Source: Eledone cirrhosa
Taxonomy: Eukaryota
Direction of reading: 5' to 3'
Length of the DNA: 64,000 nt
Assembly: GCA_964016885.1 (NCBI GenBank)
Contig: OZ024740.1
Coordinates: 387,686,001 to 387,750,000, forward strand
The notes below the pieces were generated by a model. The model was not told the DNA's origin and made no database searches. It saw only the letters and a program-made list of their open reading frames with translations. The position numbers and the translations under genes were made by a program. The stretch's first letter is position 1; each line of letters begins with the position of its first letter. Positions 40,554 through 52,678 of the stretch are shown piece by piece.

Positions 40554-40630
<77 letters not shown>

Positions 40631-40687
40631 AAGTAAAATAAAGTAAAATAAATAAGTCAAATGTTTAAAATTTAGCTTCGTTTATTA

Positions 40688-40740
40688 CTGCTATATATAT
40701 TTCGGTGACAGCCATCTTTGGCTGTGACCTCTTCAGGCAG
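40688..40740 (-). ncRNA. Type I hammerhead ribozyme, mirror copy of 43999-44051
   Basis: Exact reverse complement. Confidence 0.9.
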
Positions 40741-43700
40741 GTCCGAATTAGTGTGGTATAGACAAGTACATATGTTGTTGAGGTGTATAATTTTGTCAAT
40801 ACTCTGGTTGGGTTGTTATTTCACTGAGGAACTGGAATCATATGAATTCAAACAAACGAATTTCAGTGTCAAAGGGCCTCTTCTCCTCTCATTGGTCAAT
40901 TGTTAGAACATTCCTCATTCAAGACTCTATAGAAATTCGTTCTGAGGCAAGCCAATCTGTAGTTGTTGTTCTTGTTATTGTTAGGTACATCTGACCTCAA
41001 TTCTTGTGTTGGTAGTGTTGTTACTGTTGGAGTTAGCTTAAAAAATTGATAAAGTGGTAGAAGGAACAAAGTGGTAAAGGAACAAAATAAGAAAAAAATG
41101 TCAAACTTCCCATTGGTCAGTTTTGAAAGCATTCCTCAGTCTGAAGTCTATAGAAATTCTTTCTGGGGTGAGGCTCCCTGTAGTGTTTGTGTTTTCTATT
41201 GTTAAGTACATTTGACCTCTACCCTTATTTCGGTAGTGTTGGTGTTGTGGTCAGCTTATGTCTTGCTGCTGCTGACAATTTAGAAGTATCTGTGTGTGTT
41301 TTTTCATCCCTCCTGCCACCATCTCCCGTGTTGGTGGTGGGGGGAGGGGGTTCTTCCATGTATATGAAGAAATATAAGGCAATAAATGAAGAAAACAGAA
41401 AATAAATAATAAATAGAGAATAAAGAATAAATGAAAAATTGGTGAAAAAGTAATGAAAATGAATATGGAGAAGTGAAAAATAAAATGAAGATTCAAATAA
41501 AGTAGGATAAAGTGTGTGTGTGCTATAACCAACCTCAAGGTCAGAAATATGTTGGATAGATTGGTATGAGGTACAAGATGGTAAAATAATAAAAGAATAA
41601 GATAATCAAACAAAATGTGTTTGTGTTATAATCAATCTCAACTTAAAAATAAATATAAGGTGATACAGTGAAGAGAACAGAAAACATAACAAATTAATAA
41701 AGAGAAATCAAGATTTAAAATTGAAAATTGGAAATCAGAAATCAAGTATATTAAAATGTGTTTGTGTTATATAGATGTTGGCCAAATTATAATGGCTGTG
41801 TCCGATTCAATCTCTAGGCTATCATGGTGTCTGCTCAGCCTGGGTTGTTCCCTATGGCTTGAGGGGAGTTCTCAACCTAGGGTGTTGTTACTGCCCATAT
41901 AGCTTGAGGGAGGTCTGGCCGAGAGGTGTCTACATGTTCTGGAGAAGTCCCTATAGCTTGAGGGGAGTTCGCATCTTCTTGTGTTGCTACTGTCCATATA
42001 TCTTGAGGAAGGTCCCGGCTCTAAGGTGTCTGCATGTCCCGAAGAAGTCGGTTCTGAGGTTTATCAGGCCGCTTCCACCTCTTAGTATCTCGAGGGTCTC
42101 GTTCAGACATAGTTTGCATATGCAAGATCCCTCTTTATCGGGTGGTACTTGCCTGATTATGTACCAGGCCATAGAGTACGGGGTCCTGTCCAGCTTAAGT
42201 TTCCAGATCAGGTCGGAGAGAGCCGTGCTTTTCCTTTTGGCCTCCTTATTGAATGAATGGCGATGGTTCTACCAGCAGTCTTTAAAGCTCGTTGATGTGG
42301 CTCCTATGTAGCGGTGTTCGGAGTTGGGGGTTTTAACCCTACAACCGTATACTAGGTTGTAGGATTAAAACCTAGTATACGGTTGTAGGGTTAAAACCCC
42401 CAACTCCGAACACCTCTACATAGCAGCCACATCAACGAGCTTTAAAGACCGCTGGTACAACCATCGCCATTCATTCAATAAGGAGGCCAAAGGAAAAGCA
42501 CGGTTCTCTCCGACCTGATCTGGAAACTTAAGCTGGACAGGACCCCGTACTCTATGGCCTGGTACATAATCAGGCAAGTACCACCCGATAAAGAGGGATC
42601 TTGCATATGCAAACTATGTCTGAACGAGACCCTCGAGATACTAAGAGGTGGAAGCGGCCTGATAAACCTCAGAACCGACTTCTTCGGGACATGCAGACAC
42701 CTTAGAGCCGGGACCTTCCTCAAGATATATGGACAGTAGCAACACAAGAAGATGCGAACTCCCCTCAAGCTATAGGGACTTCTCCAGAACATGTAGACAC
42801 CTCTCGGCCAGACCTCCCTCAAGCTATATGGGCAGTAACAACACCCTAGGTTGAGAACTCCCCTCAAGCCATAGGGAACAACCCAGGCTGAGCAGACACC
42901 ATGATAGCCTAGAGATTGAATCGGACACAGCCATTATAATTTGGCCAACATCTATATAACACAAACACATTTTAATATACTTGATTTCTGATTTTCAATT
43001 TTAAATCTTGATTTCTCTTTATTAATTTGTTATTTGTTTTCTGTTCTCTTCACTGAATCACGTTATATTTATTTTTAAGTTGAGATTGATTATAACACAA
43101 ACACATTTTGTTTGATTATCTTATTCTTTTATTATTTTACCATCTTCTTCCTCAAAGCAATCTATCAACATATTTCTGACCTTGAGATTGATTATAGCAC
43201 ACACACACTTTATCCTACTTTATTTGAATCTTCATTTTATTTTTCACTTCTCCATATTCATTTTCATTACTTTTTCACCAATTTTTCATTTATTCTTTAT
43301 TCTCTATTTATTATTTATTTTCTGTTTTCTTCATTTATTGCCTTATATTTCTTCATATACATGGAAGAACCCCCTCCCCCCACCACCAACACGGGAGATG
43401 GTGGCAGGAGGGATGAAAAAACACACACAGATACTTCTAAATTGTCAGCAGCAGCAAGACATAAGCTGACCACAACACCAACAACACTACCGAAATAAGG
43501 GTAGAGGTCAAATGTACTTAACAATAGAAAACACAAACACTACAGGGAGCCTCACCCCAGAAAGAATTTCTATAGACTTCTGACTGAGGAATGCTCTCAA
43601 AACTGACCAATGGGAAGTTTGACATTTTTTTCTTATTTTGTTCCTTTACCACCTTGGTCCTTCTACCACTTTATCAATTTTTTAAGCTAACTCCAACAGT

Positions 43701-43998
43701 AACAACACTACCAACACAAGAATTGAGGTCAGATGTACCTAACAATAACAAGAACAACAACTACAGATTGGCTTGCCTCAGAACGAATTTCTATAGAGTT
43801 TTGAATGAGGAATGTTCTAACAATTGACCAATGAGAGGAGAAGAGGCCCTTTGACACTGAAATTCGTTTGTTTGAATTCATATGATTCCAGTTCCTCAGT
43901 GAAATAACAACCCAACCAGGAACTGGGCATACCAGAGTATTGACAAAATTATACACCTCAACAACATATGTACTTGTCTATACCACACTAATTCGGAC

Positions 43999-44051
43999 CT
44001 GCCTGAAGAGGTCACAGCCAAAGATGGCTGTCACCGAAATATATATAGCAG
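43999..44051 (+). ncRNA. Type I hammerhead ribozyme
   Basis: CTGC-CTGAAGA-GGTcACAGCCA(AAGA)TGGCTGTcACC-GAAA-TATATA-TA^GCAG; AATAAA follows at 44053. Confidence 0.9.
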
Positions 44052-44203
44052 TAATAAACGAAGCTAAATTTTAAACATTTGACTTATTTATTTTACTTTA
44101 TTTTACATTACTCCGGAGTAACCAAACCAACCTGCGCACTTCGTCGAGTGCTCCAGCCTGCATACTGAGGTGTTGGTATACAACCAACATATACTCAAAA
44201 TCT

Positions 44204-44319
<116 letters not shown>

Positions 44320-44760
44320 TTCAAGAGTAACCAATCTTAAAGAGAGAGATGGAGATAGTATAGGAGATATTGGTGAGTTAGTTAGAAGCCAAAGCGTAAA
44401 GGCATGTGCTCAATGTGCAATACGCAGTAGAAAGCAGCTAGGTGGCTGGGTTCATGCAGAAGTTAGGTGCGCAGAGCTGGAAATATTCATTAGTTAAGTA
44501 AAACAAGGCCACAAACTTCACAAGGAAGACATTATTAAAAGATTGTCAACATATTTTAGTTTGATGTAAGGAATGTAGAGAATAATAATAATAATATTAA
44601 TAATAATAATGTCCGTTTACAATTGTTTCGCTACTCCATATAATATTTCTGGATCAGATGATTATATATCATAATTGATCTGGTTCAGTTGAAAATAAAT
44701 AACATATTTAAAAAACAGAGTGGCTCATCGGAACTTCAAAGGAATATAAATTAAAATAAT

Positions 44761-44940
44761 TGTTTCTACTTTAGGCACAAGGCCAGCAATTACCCAGTGC
44801 ATTACTGGTACTTTATTTTATCTACCCCGTAAGGATGAAAGGCAAAGTCAACCTCGGCGGGATTTGAACTCAGATCGTAAAGGGACGTAACTATGCTGGA
44901 AAGCATGACGTCCGACCCTCTACCGATACTGCCAATCCAC
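44761..44940 (-). mobile_element. Meta-core SINE with 9 bp TSD TAAAATAAT
   Basis: TSD at 44752-44760 and 44941-44949; empty site visible in the opposite arm (~45365). Confidence 0.92.
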
Positions 44941-45524
44941 TAAAATAATGGGATAATGTTACATAATATAATGTTCCATATATTGGTTTTTACTATGGTG
45001 TCTTGGTTGCATCAGTTGTCAGCCATAATCAAGCAGTATTCATCTGTAGCCCCATTATTACTTATACCTAATAAGTTAAATTGCTATGAACAACTCGATA
45101 ATTATAAGTTACCTCCCCTACATTGTCTCTCAATTAAAAAATTTAAAAATTAGCACTTACCTATAAACACTCACAATTTCTAATCTCTCGAGAAGTTACT
45201 TCCCCTGAAACCAACCTCTAAATAGTAAGGTAAATATGCCCTTTGGCAGCCATCTTGTTACCCATAGGCAGATCTCACACAATGCAGCCTCGACAGATGA
45301 ATACTGCTTTATTATGGCTGACAACTGACAATATATGGAACATTATATTATGTAACATTATCCCATTATTTTAATTTATATTCCTTTGAAGTTCCGATGA
45401 GCCACTCTGTTTTTTAAATATGTTAATTATTTTCAACTGAACCAGATCAATTATGATATATAATCATCTGATCCAGAAATATTATATGGAGTAGCGAAAC
45501 AATTGTAAACGGACATTATTATTA

Positions 45525-45699
45525 TTGGCAGTATCAGTAGAGGGTTGGACGCCATGTTTTCTAGCATAGTTACGTCCCTTTACAGTCTGAGTTCAAATCC
45601 CACCGAGGTTAACTTTGCCTTTCATCCTTACGGGGTCGATAAAATAAAGTACCAGTAATGTACTGGGTAATTGCTGGCCTTGTGCCTAAAGTAGAAACA
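45525..45699 (+). mobile_element. Meta-core SINE inserted in an (ATT)n tract
   Basis: Empty site visible in the left arm (~44600). Confidence 0.88.
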
Positions 45700-45842
45700 A
45701 TTATTATTAATATTATTAGTATTATTCTCTACATTCCTTACATCAAACTAAAATATGTTGACAATCTTTTAATAATATCTTCCTTATGAAGTTTGTGGCC
45801 TTGTTTTGCTTAACTAATGAATATATATATATATATTATATA

Positions 45843-48385
45843 TCTTTCGCATTTAAATATTCTGACATCTCCACAGACAAACTTCACATCATTCTCACCG
45901 CAAGAAAAACCTTATTAGAATTCAACAATGAATACTGGACTAGAGCCGATACTTCCAAAAACTTTGATATCACAATGGGTGCTTCCGGTTCATCGCACTG
46001 ATTTGATAGGTATTTTTATTTTGAATTCTTTAAATCCGAAAATTCCTCAACTTCGCGGTGGAATTTATCGTGACGATGGACGTTTTACTATCTTAAATTG
46101 CAACTTAGTTAACCTTAATATTATTAAGAATATACGTGATCTCTTTAAGCAACATAACCTTAAATTTGAATTTGATAACAACGTCAAACTAGCTAACTTC
46201 TTGGATATATCCCTTAATATTGACACTGGCCTTACCATAAAAACAATGAGAATCTAAATTATGTTAATTTTAAATCTAACCACGCCACTAACATTAAAAA
46301 TGCTATAGTCAGTAATATTGGAAAAAGAATATCAAACCTATCATCTAATAAAAATATCTTCGATGCTAACGCCAATTACTATAATAATGCGCTTTCTAAA
46401 GCCGGCTATCCTGATAAAATTAAATACAGTAAAGAAACCAATCCTAGAAGGTTTTACAGTAAAATAATTAATTATTATAATTCCAATAACTTAAATAAAA
46501 GACCTAGATACAAAATATAATCTGGTATAATGCTCCTTTCTCTATTTCTATTAATAATAATATTCATAAACTATTCTTTAGGGCCTTGGATAAATGCTTC
46601 CCTCCCTCACATATCTATAGTAAAATCTTTAACAAACATACAATAACATTTTCTTATTCCACCTTATAACTGAGAAAAATATATTGTTTTACATAGAGAA
46701 GTTGAAAAACCGTTGGAAGATAATATATAAATTAAAAGAATTTGAAAATTAATGAAGAGAAAAATTTTAGAATAATGTTAAATTAAGGTTTGTATATTTA
46801 AGGGTTTAATAATATGTGCGATGAAAAGAAATTGTTAATATGTATTGAGAATAATATTTAATGGTTTAATAATATGTGCGATGGTTCAACAAATTGAATA
46901 AGAAAAATAAACAAAAATTTATTCAATTTGATATTGCCAGCTACTATTCTTCTATTTCACCCTCACTTCTCAACAATGCTCTATCTTTCGCTTACAAATA
47001 TTCAGACATCACCACAGATGAACTTCACACGTAAAACCATCCTAGAGTTCAACAATGAATATTGGACCAGAGCTGATACCTCTAAAAACTTTGACATCAC
47101 AATGGGAGCATCCGATTCATCCCAATTGACAGATTTAATTGGTATCTTTATTTTGAACTCTTTGAATCGGAAAATTCCTCTACTTCGCGGTGGAATTTAT
47201 CGTGACGATGGACTCTTTACTATCTTAAATTGCAACATAGTTAACCTTAATATTATTAAGAACAATATACGTAATCTCTTTAACCAACATAACTTAAAAA
47301 TTGAATTTGATAACAGCATCAAACTAGCTAATTTCTTGGATGTATCTCTTAATCTTGACACTGGCCTATATTACCCTTACCATAAAAACAACGAGAACCT
47401 AAATTATGTTAACTTTAAATCTAACCACCCCACTAATATTAAGAATGCTATAGTTAGTAATATTGGAAAAAGAATATCTAACCTATCTTCTAATAAAAAC
47501 ATCTTTGATGCTAACGCCAATTACTATAATAACGCGCTTTCTAAAGCCGGTTATCCTGATAAAATCAAATATAGTAAAGAAACAAATTCTAGAAGATCTT
47601 ACAGTAGAATAATTAATCATGATCATTCCAATAACTTTAATAAAAGACCTAGATACAAAAACATAATCTGGTTTAATGCTCCTTTCTCCATCTCTATTAA
47701 TAACAATATTCCTAAATTATTCTTTAGTGCCTTAAATAAATGCTTCCCTCCCTCACATATCTATAGTAAAATATTTAACAAACACACTATAAAATTCTCC
47801 TATTCGACCTCCTCCAACATCTCCAACATTATCTCTAAACACAACAATAAAATACTAAATACTAAATCTCTTCCTTCCAACACTGAATATCATAATAATA
47901 GTAATAGTACTCCCGACGTCATTGTTAACTCTAGGCTAATATCTGCAAACCCAAATACAACGTCAAACGCAACTTCGCTAAATGTTCTTAATCCCATTCT
48001 AAATCAAGAAACTATTATTCCTATCGTAAATAACTTCTCCAATCCAATCTCTTCTATAGATAACACTAGGTCACTTGTTAATAACTCTGTTAATCTCTCT
48101 AATCGCAATTGCAATTGCCCTGTTAAAAATAAATGTCCTCTCAACAACCATTGTCTTGAAAAAAACTTAATCTACGAATGTAAAGTTATAACTGACACCA
48201 ATTCCTTTACTTATTCTGGCTCCACTTCCACCTCCTTTAAAGCTCGTCTTCATAATCATCATTCGTCTTTTAAATACCAACTTAAAAGAACCAACACGGC
48301 ACTCTCAGAACTCATATGGTCCTTGAAAGACAAAAATATTAACTATAACATCTCTTGGAAAAAAGTTTGTTTTGCTTCTTCATGA
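45843..48385 (+). mobile_element. Cluster of the same Naiad family as 8844-13897: RT fragment (45843-46665), inverted 3' UTR piece (~46665-46885), 5'- and 3'-truncated RT-EN copy (~46882-48385)
   Basis: ORF 46928-48385 is nearly identical to ORF 8881-10458 in the RT-EN part; 46665-46885 is antisense to ~10740-11110. Confidence 0.9.
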
Positions 48386-48386
48386 A

Positions 48387-48989
48387 GCTTAAACAATTAA
48401 GTTAAAAATGTAAAGTGACCAGTGAAAAACTCGGTACATCTACATCATATGTACACGTGTGTGTATTCATATGCATACTAGTATTTCAGTATACATATGT
48501 GGATGTACATTTTTAACTTAATTGTTTAAGCGTCAGTCATACAAAAGTGAGTTACAAACGAAACGAAATTTAATTTCGTTTCGTTATTTGTTTTTATCGT
48601 CTCCGTTGAACCGGTACGTACTCACGCTCTATGCAAATTGGTCTGCCCACTACTAATTTTCATAGAAAAAGCATATAACGATATGTGCTTTCACGATTCT
48701 CTAGAAAGGCCGGAAGATAGGTAAATATTGCTGATGAGATGTAACAACATCGAAACTAGTCCAATATTCCTCGTCTGGCTTTCTGGAGAATAGAGGAAAG
48801 GTGTTTCCTCAAAAACCAGTATGACTCTAAAAACCGGTTTGTCTGTGTGTTTACATACAGAATAGCTGGACACTCACAGTAAAGTGACCAGTGAAAAACT
48901 CGGTACATCTACATATGTACACGTGTGTGTATTCATATGCATACTAGTATTTCAGTATACATATGTGGATGTACATTTTTAACTTAATT

Positions 48990-48994
<5 letters not shown>
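48387..48994 (+). mobile_element. Non-coding hammerhead-bearing element (retrozyme-like or non-autonomous PLE)
   Basis: Direct repeats 48410-48528 and 48879-48994; 26 bp inverted 5' piece 48387-48412; internal hammerhead. Confidence 0.72.
48724..48768 (+). ncRNA. Canonical minimal type I hammerhead ribozyme, GUC cleavage after 48761
   Basis: AATATTG-CTGATGA-GATGT(AACA)ACATC-GAAA-CTAG-TC^CAATATT; perfect 7 bp stem I, 5 bp stem II, palindromic stem III (ACTAGT). Confidence 0.93.
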
Positions 48995-49032
<38 letters not shown>

Positions 49033-49389: not shown

Positions 49390-49625
49390 AGATGAGCACA
49401 GAGCAACGAACAAGCCTGAAGTTTCTGGTCCCCCTGGGGAAAACTCGTCAGTAGCAGTTGGAAAACGGTAGCAAGTATACGATGTCGCGTTCACGGGTTT
49501 TTAAGTGGCACAAACGGTGTACGCTGACAGCCAGAAGTGAATGGCGTTCAACGAGCAGGACTGAAGCCAGCCGATGTTGAGCACTGGAGATACGTCGTGC
49601 CTGGCGATAGTGCCGAATGTTTGAC
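49390..49625 (+). pseudogene. Mariner transposase N-terminal relic
   Basis: Degenerate EQR..LKF...LGK...MSRSRVFKWHKR helix-turn-helix region. Confidence 0.65.
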
Positions 49626-49639
49626 TGATCGGGTAATAT

Positions 49640-52480
49640 CTATCCTACGAGGTTACCCTTTAATAAAAGAGTTTGCATACCACAACAAATAGATGACGAG
49701 ACAGAGGCACAGTTCACCATAGCTAGAAATAAGATTAGACAAATAGTAGACAGGTATACTAAGAGACAGAGCAGACCAGAGGCCCAACAACTTGGGAGGA
49801 AACCTGTAGAAGGCTTGGTTAGCCTCAAGCAGCGCACAAGGGTTGGTGAGGTAGTATGTCTACCCACGGATAAGTCAGGTAGGATGTCAATAGATAGCAT
49901 GCCGAACTACATCGAGGCTATGCAACCCCACATCACCAACACGAGCGAAATTGCACAACAAACACACGATGGGAGAGAGAAAATCCTCAACGCTCACATG
50001 ATGATGTGGACTGATATCCTAAAGCCAAGCAGACGCACTGCCAACAACTTCCAGGCGTCTAACAATGGCATACCACCCTTGTATGGGCTCCGCAAAGACC
50101 ACAAGACAGTCGACGACCCGACAACAGGACCACCAACAAGACCCGTATGCGGAGCTAATATAGCTAGCAACTACAGGATCTCCTACTTCCTCTCAGTGGT
50201 TATACGCCCCATAATGAAGATGTCCCCAGATGTATGTGACAGTACAGAGGACCTTCTCAGCAGAATCAGTGAGTGCAACAAAAACAGGAGCCTATCCAAC
50301 TGCATAATAGGCAGCATGGATGTGGTGTCACTGTACCCATCCATTAACATTGATTTTGCTGTGAAAAGATGTGTGGAGATGATCATTGAGAGTGAGGTGG
50401 AGTTCTGCGACGTCGACACAGACGAACTGGGCCTCCTACTTAGACTTACCTACGACACTGACTACCTAGACAGCCATGACCTTAGATGTTTCTGCCCTAG
50501 TAGACCTATAAGAGGTAGACCCCCCACCATAACCTCAATGGCAAAAAAGACTCCCATGGGAAGGTGGATTGGGTGGACCAAAGCTATACGGACCCCCCAA
50601 AACAATGATCAGGTAAGAAAAATGGTCGCACATGCAATAGGGGCTAGTATCAAAACTACCCTAAAGGGCCACATATTTAAGTTCAACGAGAAGATCTACA
50701 CCCAAAATGAGGGAGCAACCATCGGCGTCAGCATAGCTGGTGATGTTGCCAACCTTTTCATGGTATGGTGGGAAAGGAGACTTAAAGATCTCCTTAATGA
50801 GAGCTCCATAGACCTCATCATGTACTCTCGTTATGTAGACGATATCAATATAGTTATAAGAACACCCCCACTAGAGAGCACTAACAAGTTTGATTTAGAA
50901 CGTAGCACGATGGAAAGCATCCAGCAGATAGCTAATTCCATACACCAAAGTATAACTGTAACTATCGACTTCCCTTCCAAACACCCTAACAATAGACTAC
51001 CTGTATTAGACACAGAACTCTGGATTAACACTATAGACGAGAGGGCCCAAATTCTCCACTCACACTATGCTAAACCCATGGCCTCCAATACCTGATACTC
51101 AAAAACTCAGCAATGTCCAGTAGTGCTAAGTTTAATATTCTGATCGCAGATTTGGTACGAGTGATGAAGAATGTGTCCCGCATGTGCGACCCAACAGAAA
51201 TGGAAAGACACATCCAACACTTCATCAACCGCATGCAGTTCTCTGGCTACAACCAAAGAGACAGAGTCAGAGTATACGAAGGAGCCATGGAAAAGTATAA
51301 GACCCTCATAGAACTGGACATGAAAGGAATTTGCCCATTATACAGGAGCAAATCATGGAATAGCTTAGATAGGGCTAGACATAAGATAGACATAAGATAG
51401 GGAAAGCCACCTCATGGTACGACAACCAGAGATACCAGAGTGTGATGTTTGTGGACGCCACCCCTAGAGGGAAATTAGCTAACCAGTGTAGAAAGGCCCC
51501 GAGAAAGACCCACTTAAAAATAAAGGTGGTAGAAAAGCCAGGAACCACCATAAAATCCCTGATCAGCAAAACCTACCCTTTTAAGAAAACCCACTGTACC
51601 AATAGGAAATGTATCATATGTAAGGTGAACCCCCGGATAAACTGTAAAACTAGAAACGTAGTCTATAGCATAAGATGTACAGAGGGTACTTGCAGAAACA
51701 TGACAACAACATACATAGGTGAGACAGCTCGTAGCATAGGTGAAAGGATAGACCAACACTGGGGGGAACTAAAAGGACGAAAAAACGGGTCAGTACTATA
51801 CGAACATGCTAGACAACAACATGACGGTAACATAGACAACATAGAAATTAGAATAATATCTAAACATAGAAATGACCCAGCAGATAGGCAAATCAGAGAG
51901 GCCAGTGAAATAGAAATGAGAAAACCAAGGCTAAACAGAAAGAATGAATGGAATAACAACAACACCCAAACAAACAACACTGACCTAAGAGAAGTATAAA
52001 TAAGTAAATAAAATAAAATAAATAAATAAATAAATACATACACAAGCACAATAACAACAAGCACATAAACATACACTAGTCACCCATCACACAGCAAACA
52101 AAACACTATACACACACGCAAACGCATGCGCAAAGAAGACAAAATAAAATAAACAAACAAGCAAATAAATAAATAAATATATAGACAGACTGAATAAAAA
52201 TGGCGTAGACATACAATACAACAGGAGGAAAATATAACGCCACTGACGATGTTGCAGATGTGCAACGAAAGATTTATGATAAACTATATATATGTGTTTG
52301 TGTCTATATTGTATCTGTATTATTTTTGACCGTCGGTCAGTCAATGGCAACATTGAGGACCGAGTAAGTTAGATTACCGATATAAAAGACACAGAAGCGA
52401 GAAGCGAAAACCAACCAAACAGTGAGTGTGTTCTGTTATTAATTCTGGCAATATTACACAAATATGACCCTCCCCAAGTA
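49640..52480 (+). mobile_element. Neptune-like PLE: RT (49815-51095), thumb (51113-51400), Cys-rich linker + GIY-YIG (51442-51999), 3' UTR/pLTR
   Basis: PTDKSG, PLYGLRKDHK, SMDVVSLYPSI, RYVDDI, VLD; C..KCIIC..NC, VVYSIRC, YIGETARSIGERIDQH; two frameshifts. Confidence 0.9.
52238..52280 (+). ncRNA. Hammerhead-like motif in the pLTR of the Neptune-like element
   Basis: CTGACGA-t-GTTGCA(GATG)TGCAAC-GAAA-GATTTA; stem I partner weak. Confidence 0.5.
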
Positions 52481-52481
52481 T

Positions 52482-52564
<83 letters not shown>

Positions 52565-52644
52565 AAAGGTAAACAGAAATATCAACGCAATCGGTACAGT
52601 ATATGGAAGGGATATATTAGGTTAACGCTTGATATATAGAGGGA

Positions 52645-52678
52645 CTTAACGTTTCAAACGCTAGTCCTTCATCAGAAG
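52645..52678 (-). ncRNA. Very minimal hammerhead-like motif in a PLE relic
   Basis: CTT-CTGATGA-AGGAC(TAGC)GTTT-GAAA-CGTT-AAG; foldable only as a dimer, with wobble pairs. Confidence 0.4.

Follow-up and report, generated by a model that had tools for sequence, protein, structure and literature searches.

A truncated two-armed retrozyme insertion beside a broken PLE in Eledone cirrhosa, probably copied into (TA)n by a PLE enzyme

Introduction

The window, a 64,000-nt stretch of the Eledone cirrhosa genome, contains a small repeated element with a hammerhead motif that begins exactly where the coding region of a PLE breaks off. The locus raises the question of what this element is, how it was copied into its (TA)n target, and whether its contact with the PLE is a trace of the insertion event. 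An initial annotation of the sequence had read it as a 1.25-mer copy of a retrozyme RNA and had explained the contact by template switching of an RT from a Naiad-type PLE onto the small RNA. PLE mobilisation of animal retrozymes has hitherto rested on co-occurrence, a common ribozyme type and pLTR homology, and a preprint states that the mechanism of retrozyme mobilisation remains to be elucidated (10.64898/2026.07.22.740005).

Results

Layout of the element in the window

We use the name Rz1 for the family of 465-470 nt retrozymes to which the window element belongs. Circle positions are counted from the first base after the predicted cleavage site (position 1 is 48762). A and B denote the two sites at which the arms of Rz1 insertions end (see below). 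The features of the locus are as follows.

46882..48383, + strand: neighbouring Hydra-clade PLE, outside the Rz1 element; RT and partial C-terminal GIY-YIG, with about 1.25 kb of the 3' end missing
48383..48412, - strand: stub of the inverted Rz1 arm; circle positions 210-239, 3-nt overlap (GTA) with the forward arm
48410..48994, + strand: Rz1 forward arm of 1.26 units; starts at circle position 118, crosses one cleavage site and stops at outer end A
48434..48508, + strand: long TA/CA-rich hairpin directly upstream of site A; second copy at about 48900-48975
48523..48528, + strand: internal copy of site A (AATT or AATTGTTTA), at which other insertions have the end of one of their arms
48529..48597, + strand: "tail" of about 70 nt between sites A and B, with a 13-bp hairpin (48557-48585); site B is 48596-48597
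48631..48638, + strand: octamer ATGCAAAT, common to the sister families Rz2 and Rz3
48724..48768, + strand: motif of a type I hammerhead whose helix III is the palindrome ACUAGU; cleavage predicted after C48761, as a dimer
48989..48994, + strand: outer end A used by the window insertion, from end mapping
48993..49030, no strand: (TA)19 microsatellite, the right-hand target site, read in the sequence

The direct repeats 48410-48528 (119 nt) and 48879-48994 (116 nt) are identical except for a 3-nt insertion in the first, and the repeat spacing is 469 and then 466, in agreement with the terminal repeats of about 117 bp, some 467 bp apart, that had been reported initially. This apparent terminal repeat is a partial extra unit without LTR organisation. 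The inverted 5' piece is also present and PLE-style, but it is 30 nt long (29 of 30 positions matching) and not 26. The hammerhead, the hairpin at 48557-48585 and the octamer were each found where they had been annotated. The element had been described as devoid of a credible ORF, and over three natural tandem units no stop-free frame was longer than 64 codons and no sense ATG frame longer than 20. A hairpin resembling 48434-48508 also occurs in Rz2. The octamer is altered at two positions in inherited variants of two loci (L077 and L196); ATGCAAAT is reportedly connected with promoter work on newt satellite 2.

The hammerhead has a stem I of 7 bp, CUGAUGA, a stem II of 5 bp, GAAA and one extra pair that closes the palindrome ACUAGU. 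It had been called a minimal type I hammerhead. The type was correct, but the motif has the canonical metazoan form, with a 1-bp helix III and a palindromic loop as in HHR_Amex1 of the axolotl, and is not the helix-III-less "min-HHR" of PMC4209133. Passages of PMC4209133 and PMC7229834 describe a dimer requirement. A circular monomer would escape cutting by a hammerhead that depends on a dimer (PMC4209133). Because the window locus has one ribozyme only, it could not release a monomer, as had been pointed out. Comparison of the window with Rfam gave nothing at gathering score; Hammerhead_HH9 matched 48713-48784 with 35.3 bits (E 4.4e-7), under its cut-off of 52. The fold of the whole unit had a z of -8.4, with none of 100 shuffles as low. 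The hammerhead alone (45-78 nt) folded no better than its shuffles (z -0.07).

A large dispersed family with two sister families

A search of the 3.0-Gb assembly with one unit returned 221 matches from the 40 regions scored among 333 candidates, mostly 97-100% identical and many of them in tandem. The 31-nt hammerhead core has 1,633 exact matches genome-wide (0 in the reversed control), and site B is joined to (TA)n in 2,343 places. Forty such junctions, taken in order on contig C1 with the previously mapped ones excluded, were all Rz1 members (86-100% identity); they lacked the exact hammerhead and belonged to older Rz1 subfamilies. The window element is one of about two thousand insertions of this 465-base repeat. 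The unit (465-470 nt) has a GC content of 37%, and the longest arm contains 16.3 units.

Rz1 has a sister family, Rz2 (about 421 nt, 2,160 candidates), with a local alignment score of 185 compared with 33 +/- 6 for shuffles. A second one, Rz3 (about 434 nt), is close to Rz2. It accounts for most of the 1,680 matches to a degenerate hammerhead pattern, which we abandoned as a route to a PLE partner since it led to this third retrozyme family and to no PLE. Rz2 and Rz3 share the motif order, the ACUAGU palindrome, the octamer and ends homologous to A and B (L003:2110-2900, L100-L119, L136-L165). Four two-armed Rz2 insertions end at the homologous sites; L105 is ambiguous.

Dispersed copies and tandem arrays, the prediction of the initial annotation, were thus found on many contigs, with arrays of up to 16 units. 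It had also foreseen different permutation points: the inner 5' ends do vary, but the outer 3' ends are fixed at two sites. Nor is the family single-copy or confined to the 3' side of RT-coding PLEs; a PLE ORF abutted an arm in only 1 of 64 loci screened, the window locus itself, and in none of 40 further loci. The short non-coding tandem unit, the hammerhead motif in its units, target duplications longer than 4 nt and dispersed insertions bear out the retrozyme reading. Rz1 is a non-LTR retrozyme, a previously undescribed family of a known metazoan class. It has been dispersed by retrotransposition, as is evident from its presence on many contigs, the fixed 3' ends, the variable 5' ends and the target duplications.

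Two arms with two different fixed ends

We mapped 65 insertions (set 1), 29 from consecutive hammerhead matches on C1 and the rest by similarity, and 32 more picked by marker variants (set 2). Most consisted of two head-to-head arms, with the outer 3' ends pointing away from each other. These ends lay at two sites, A at circle positions 227-232 and B at about 300. All 66 two-armed insertions with both outer ends classifiable (41 in set 1 and 25 in set 2) had one A and one B; there was no AA and no BB, of which independent drawing of ends would give one half. The remainder of set 1 comprised 7 two- or three-armed insertions with an unclassifiable end, the window locus included, and 17 single-armed ones (10 B, 5 A and 2 other). 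The same pairing was seen in 19 of 19 insertions of a consecutive unselected run on C1 and in one more, L201, once it had been extended. Selection on B ends gave 27 arm pairs, 24 of them A+B (two of these representing a duplicated pair) and three cut by the edge of the stretch or truncated. The longer arm of the A+B insertions was A in 22 cases and B in 19.

(TA)n followed directly after 95 of 103 A or B ends. Flanks that were not pure TA were available for 26 insertions. Eight of these (L012, L014, L049, L058, L061, L065, L083 and L219) had target duplications of 12-13 nt in unique sequence, such as AACAAAGGAACTA in L061 and TTTAGAAATAAA in L058. The others mostly had uninformative TA runs, and L218 had no duplication. 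The contigs of run X1, possibly the source sample and so not independent, had loose ends with (TA)n at 48523, 48528 and 48597, corresponding to sites A and B.

The inner ends were distributed uniformly round the unit (KS p 0.30), and at the join the arms mostly overlapped by 0-6 nt. The two inner ends of one insertion were unrelated to each other (KS p 0.74), which argues against fold-back self-priming, as put forward in a passage of PMC3846280, for Rz1. The cleavage site was crossed by 98 of 103 arms, and a pile-up of inner ends at this site was not significant (9 of 94 against 5.1 expected, p 0.07). L017, the sole case among 47, has two arms that both break off at circle position 2, right at the cleavage site, which is what a template with a cut 5' end would give.

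Both arms share one haplotype

We compared haplotypes in 96 loci, with 544 unit pieces kept, 6 dropped as misaligned and two old-subfamily loci left out. Ninety-two distinct substitutions were present in every covering unit of both arms, and 375 changes were found in single units. Among the 46 loci with at least four covering units, 26 were fixed for a marker found in at most 9 of the 96 loci. Unit-specific letters occurred at the same unit number in both arms in 5 of 59 testable loci (L072, L079, L200, L201 and partly L196), and 236 same-number unit differences were not mirrored between the arms. L199 and L217 were set aside as in-register loci, as their fixed variants had been overwritten in one unit. 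Since fixed haplotypes are shared and unit-specific letters are mirrored, we conclude that the two arms copy one molecule in register.

The five in-register loci require a multi-unit template, which a monomer circle could not provide; nor does a clean dimer circle account for L201, whose outermost unit departs from the period-2 pattern. Twenty-five variants were common to several units of one arm only. This indicates local duplication after insertion, and array length is therefore not all due to reverse transcription. Three markers that had been regarded as locus-private were found on several contigs in uniform arrays and are marks of sublineages; uniform donor arrays thus exist. Fixation through a whole array calls for a one-unit bottleneck followed by amplification, and rolling-circle copying, the model given for retrozymes in passages of PMC7229834 and PMC7761336, supplies both in one step. 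We lean towards a circle as the main template of Rz1 insertions, whose transcription and circularisation we infer. On 48410-48878, runs X4 and X5, which carry other organism codes, each gave one closed contig of 495-496 nt without flanks, as both a circle and a uniform array would. The X5 contig carries the compensatory stem II haplotype described below. A point against the circle is that in a preprint 8 of 9 Xenopus dimers did not cleave (10.64898/2026.07.22.740005).

In L196 (G000:C5:63.09 Mb) and L201/L226 (G000:C2:378.45 Mb), unit types alternate in both arms and differ mostly by A>G changes clustered in hairpins, at positions 249-277, 340-341 and 431 in L196 and at 98, 272, 277 and 382 in L201. 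By their sequence these arrays look like A-to-I edited multi-unit RNA copied into DNA. Editing throughout the family was rejected: inherited A>G and T>C changes numbered 24 and 22 (p 0.77), and A>G clusters were confined to these two loci.

Signs of selection on RNA pairing

Across families, 8 of 12 hammerhead pairs change on both sides, and 84% of cells are paired compared with 27-42% in slid controls; since the rows are 15 hammerhead variants belonging to three or four families that are related, and kinship among rows makes the shuffle test too favourable, we take these values as support and not as a probability. A large subfamily is distinguished by a compensatory A-U to U-A change in stem II and by GUU at the site of cleavage. 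Within Rz1, 24 of 41 inherited substitutions kept the predicted pair, as against 51 of 213 single-unit changes (p 2e-5). Inherited changes tend to preserve base pairs, which indicates selection on RNA pairing; the effect is weaker for transitions alone (22 of 33 inherited against 51 of 105 single-unit, p 0.08). Depletion of inherited changes in the hammerhead was not significant (5 of 41 against 21 of 245, p 0.55), nor was the complete lack of such changes at the 11 positions of its core (2.2 expected).

The PLE signature and the search for a partner

PLE insertions with inverted, 5'-truncated arms and an optional tail of 30-40 bp at one end are described in passages of PMC8557442, PMC3846280 and PMC2377424. 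The tail, called a feature unique to PLEs in PMC11167929, was explained there in vitro: the protein of one PLE, once purified, nicked and extended each of the two target strands and began copying at two sites inside the RNA, and the stretch between these sites is the tail. Two results of that study count against the course proposed below: RNA that had not been cut served as the main substrate, and the start sites did not differ between the strands. The PLEs of Eledone cirrhosa show the same anatomy. The Hydra family beside the window element has two ends in (TA)n and a tail of about 87 nt. A Neptune-type family has two ends in (TA)n and a tail of about 57 nt; three of its four two-armed copies are A+B, and the fourth has an arm that ends inside the tail. 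The fixed A and B ends on opposite arms of Rz1 are the PLE signature, so the copying enzyme is likely to be that of a PLE.

The 3' regions of three PLE families had no clear homology with Rz1 and Rz2; the Hydra 3' region and the Rz1 unit gave a weak score (41 against 27 +/- 4, reached by 1 of 200 shuffles). A search for partner proteins returned only one very large, Neptune-type family, and Pfam gave a weak RVT_1 match in one of four proteins. In spacing, Rz1 is nearer to the Neptune-type family (for the two, about 210-230 nt from hammerhead to A and a tail of about 57-70 nt) than to the Hydra families (about 50 nt and 85-90 nt). By this spacing, the Neptune-type family is the best partner candidate, a weak lead.

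The sole match among 227 inner-end flanks, an apparent chimera of Neptune and retrozyme in L264, was discarded. It is an inverted duplicate of adjacent DNA, namely a neighbouring mini-insertion, and hence no evidence for a Neptune partner. At L264:560-1140 the inner end of a retrozyme B-arm joins an inverted copy of a complete Neptune-type mini-insertion with A and B ends, which suggests fold-back copying of the target flank.

The neighbouring PLE

The ORF ending at 48385 encodes RT (motif YRDD) before a C-terminal GIY-YIG, with CxCX5C, CxxC and CxH motifs. In passages of PMC8557442, the Hydra clade is characterised by a C-terminal endonuclease, a CxCX5C linker, CxxC and CxH, a hammerhead and a (TA)n target, and Naiads by an N-terminal endonuclease. 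The identification of this ORF as a Naiad copy was therefore wrong, since RT precedes the endonuclease and the motifs are those of the Hydra clade. The ends, hammerhead core and (TA)n target also fit this assignment, which was made by motifs. The copy is 94-98% identical to its relatives, five of which run 1,243-1,270 nt further to a 3' end different from Rz1. The inverted piece of the PLE (46664-46896) lacks its outer end too.

At 48383 the inverted Rz1 arm has its outer (3') end in contact with the PLE, at a position that target DNA occupies in the other insertions. As A is the end of the forward arm, a B-arm is expected on the other side. The inverted stub runs 7 nt beyond site A (6 of 7 matching), as would a B-arm minus its outer 62 nt, and by the A+B rule it is likely the remnant of such an arm.

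Discussion

The window element is probably a truncated two-armed retrozyme insertion, copied into (TA)n by a PLE enzyme from one RNA, on which the two target strands would be primed at two internal sites 70 nt apart; this RNA would most often have been circular. We envisage that Rz1 tandem arrays are transcribed, and that paired hammerheads excise monomers which a host ligase closes, by analogy with other retrozymes (passages of PMC7229834). A PLE endonuclease would then nick the two (TA)n strands about 12 nt apart, leaving the observed duplications of 12-13 nt. Of the two nicks, one would prime at site A and its counterpart at site B, both on a single RNA molecule, a course suggested by the fixed ends and the shared haplotypes; another PLE has been shown in vitro to initiate at two internal sites on both strands (PMC11167929). 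Each cDNA passes the cleavage site and extends for up to 16 units, which a circle would permit, and the cDNAs join head-to-head at variable points. At the window locus, a deletion would have taken away the outer 62 nt of the B-arm with its (TA)n, as well as 1.25 kb from the 3' side of the Hydra PLE, or else a break in the PLE would have served as primer.

In LINE-1 twin priming, a single RNA is primed from each of the two target strands, and microhomology brings the resulting cDNAs together head-to-head. The proposed course for Rz1 is alike in both respects. The second LINE-1 primer uses variable internal sites and the first the poly(A) end, whereas the Rz1 starts are both fixed, internal and 70 nt apart. 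We suggest tentatively, with slightly less than even confidence, that PLE integration is an obligately asymmetric form of twin priming, in which one enzyme dimer on one RNA would assign A to one strand and B to the other. The head-to-head arrays would then be a record of bidirectional rolling-circle reverse transcription, a few of them from A-to-I edited multimers. Because both starts are internal, a closed ribozyme circle would be a full substrate.

Two-site PLE priming could also have used a linear, uncut multi-unit transcript, with variants spread by local unequal crossing-over and with the hammerhead mattering only occasionally. The in-register loci, the one-arm duplications, the homogeneous donor-sized arrays of three markers and the preference for uncut RNA in PMC11167929 all speak for such a template. 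Yet mirrored variants were found at five loci only, against the 236 unmirrored differences, and the 92 substitutions fixed through both arms would need repeated one-unit bottlenecks with subsequent amplification. Short insertions of 2-4 units are fixed too, and the hammerhead stems covary. We consider a linear template for the family as a whole rather unlikely, and retain the circle as the preferred main template.

Two further explanations were weighed. Had the RT switched between the PLE RNA and the small RNA in one insertion, as initially proposed, a chimera at 48383 would result; the PLE does end exactly at the stub, with a 1-nt overlap and no (TA)n between, and PLE and retrozyme are both young. 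However, a switch would join the PLE to the inner 5' end of the arm, whereas it joins the outer 3' end; the stub extends beyond site A, the other end of the PLE is also broken, the junction is peculiar to one of the 64 loci, and the Hydra 3' region shares nothing with the unit past the weak score given above. We therefore regard template switching as improbable. A deletion, or a break in the PLE used as primer, fits the junction better, because what borders the PLE is the outer end of the inverted arm, at which target DNA would be expected. Far less probable still is an origin of Rz1 as an ordinary solo pLTR, as a 3' fragment left by an autonomous PLE, or as a satellite that needed nothing but DNA recombination to spread. 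A descent of retrozymes from pLTRs has been reported (10.64898/2026.07.22.740005), and some local duplication does occur in Rz1. Against this, in the 64 and 40 loci no arm is continued by a PLE ORF and upstream of each unit lies another unit; recombination of DNA would predict neither fixed A and B ends nor target duplications nor selection on RNA pairing.

Rz1 resembles the metazoan non-LTR retrozymes of 10.64898/2026.07.22.740005 and of passages in PMC7229834 in its non-coding tandem repeats, GC content, one type I hammerhead per unit, stable fold, target duplications above 4 nt and the presence of PLEs in the same genome. Its unit is longer than the 170-400 nt given in the latter passages and within the 51-972 bp of the former. 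Unlike 24 of 57 Xenopus families (10.64898/2026.07.22.740005), Rz1 has no pLTR homology to the three PLE families compared. The retrozyme passages do not mention head-to-head arms, a pair of fixed ends or insertion into (TA)n, and the words "inverted" and "microsatellite" occur 0 times in the part of PMC7229834 available to us. A literature search, mostly outside subscription journals and supplements, found no description of the two-armed A+B anatomy for retrozymes.

With EN+ PLEs (Poseidon of Anolis, PMC11167929; the Hydra, Neptune and Naiad clades, PMC8557442; Adineta Penelopes, PMC3846280), Rz1 shares, according to passages of these papers, the inverted 5'-truncated arm, the tail at one end, AT-rich or (TA)n targets, target duplications (8-10 nt in the published cases) and a hammerhead near the 3' end. 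It differs from them in having no ORF and up to 16 whole units per arm. Its tail of about 70 nt exceeds the published 30-40 nt but falls within the 57-87 nt of the PLEs of Eledone cirrhosa. The pairing of one A with one B is strict in Rz1, whereas the passages on PLEs call the tail optional.

The Rz1 insertions carry the PLE tail signature in a family without ORFs and are direct structural evidence of PLE-type integration. The strict A+B pairing and the haplotype shared by the arms also constrain the origin of PLE inverted repeats and tails, which is left open in the PLE passages. With its two mapped starts, known target and 12-nt stagger, the 465-nt RNA suits the published in-vitro PLE assay, in linear or circular form.

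Other elements in the window

Several further elements surround the insertion. A second Hydra-type PLE lies head-to-head at 40626-44198, with hammerheads at 40686-40736 (- strand) and 44003-44053 (+ strand) and an extra tail of about 85 nt on its right arm. An older copy of the Hydra family (45841-46664), about 87% identical to the young one, stops where the inverted piece of the young copy starts. Between them, at 44483-45824, is a rearranged inverted-repeat element with arms of 125-194 nt and 92-97% complementarity. The loose hammerhead core pattern matched at 49408-49451 and 52639-52675 (both - strand), which may be due to chance. A Neptune-type PLE at 49629-52489 has RT, a CX4CxxC linker, GIY-YIG and a hammerhead core at 52243; its family is very young and abundant, with 32,700 protein candidates and open frames of up to 1,213 aa elsewhere in the genome.
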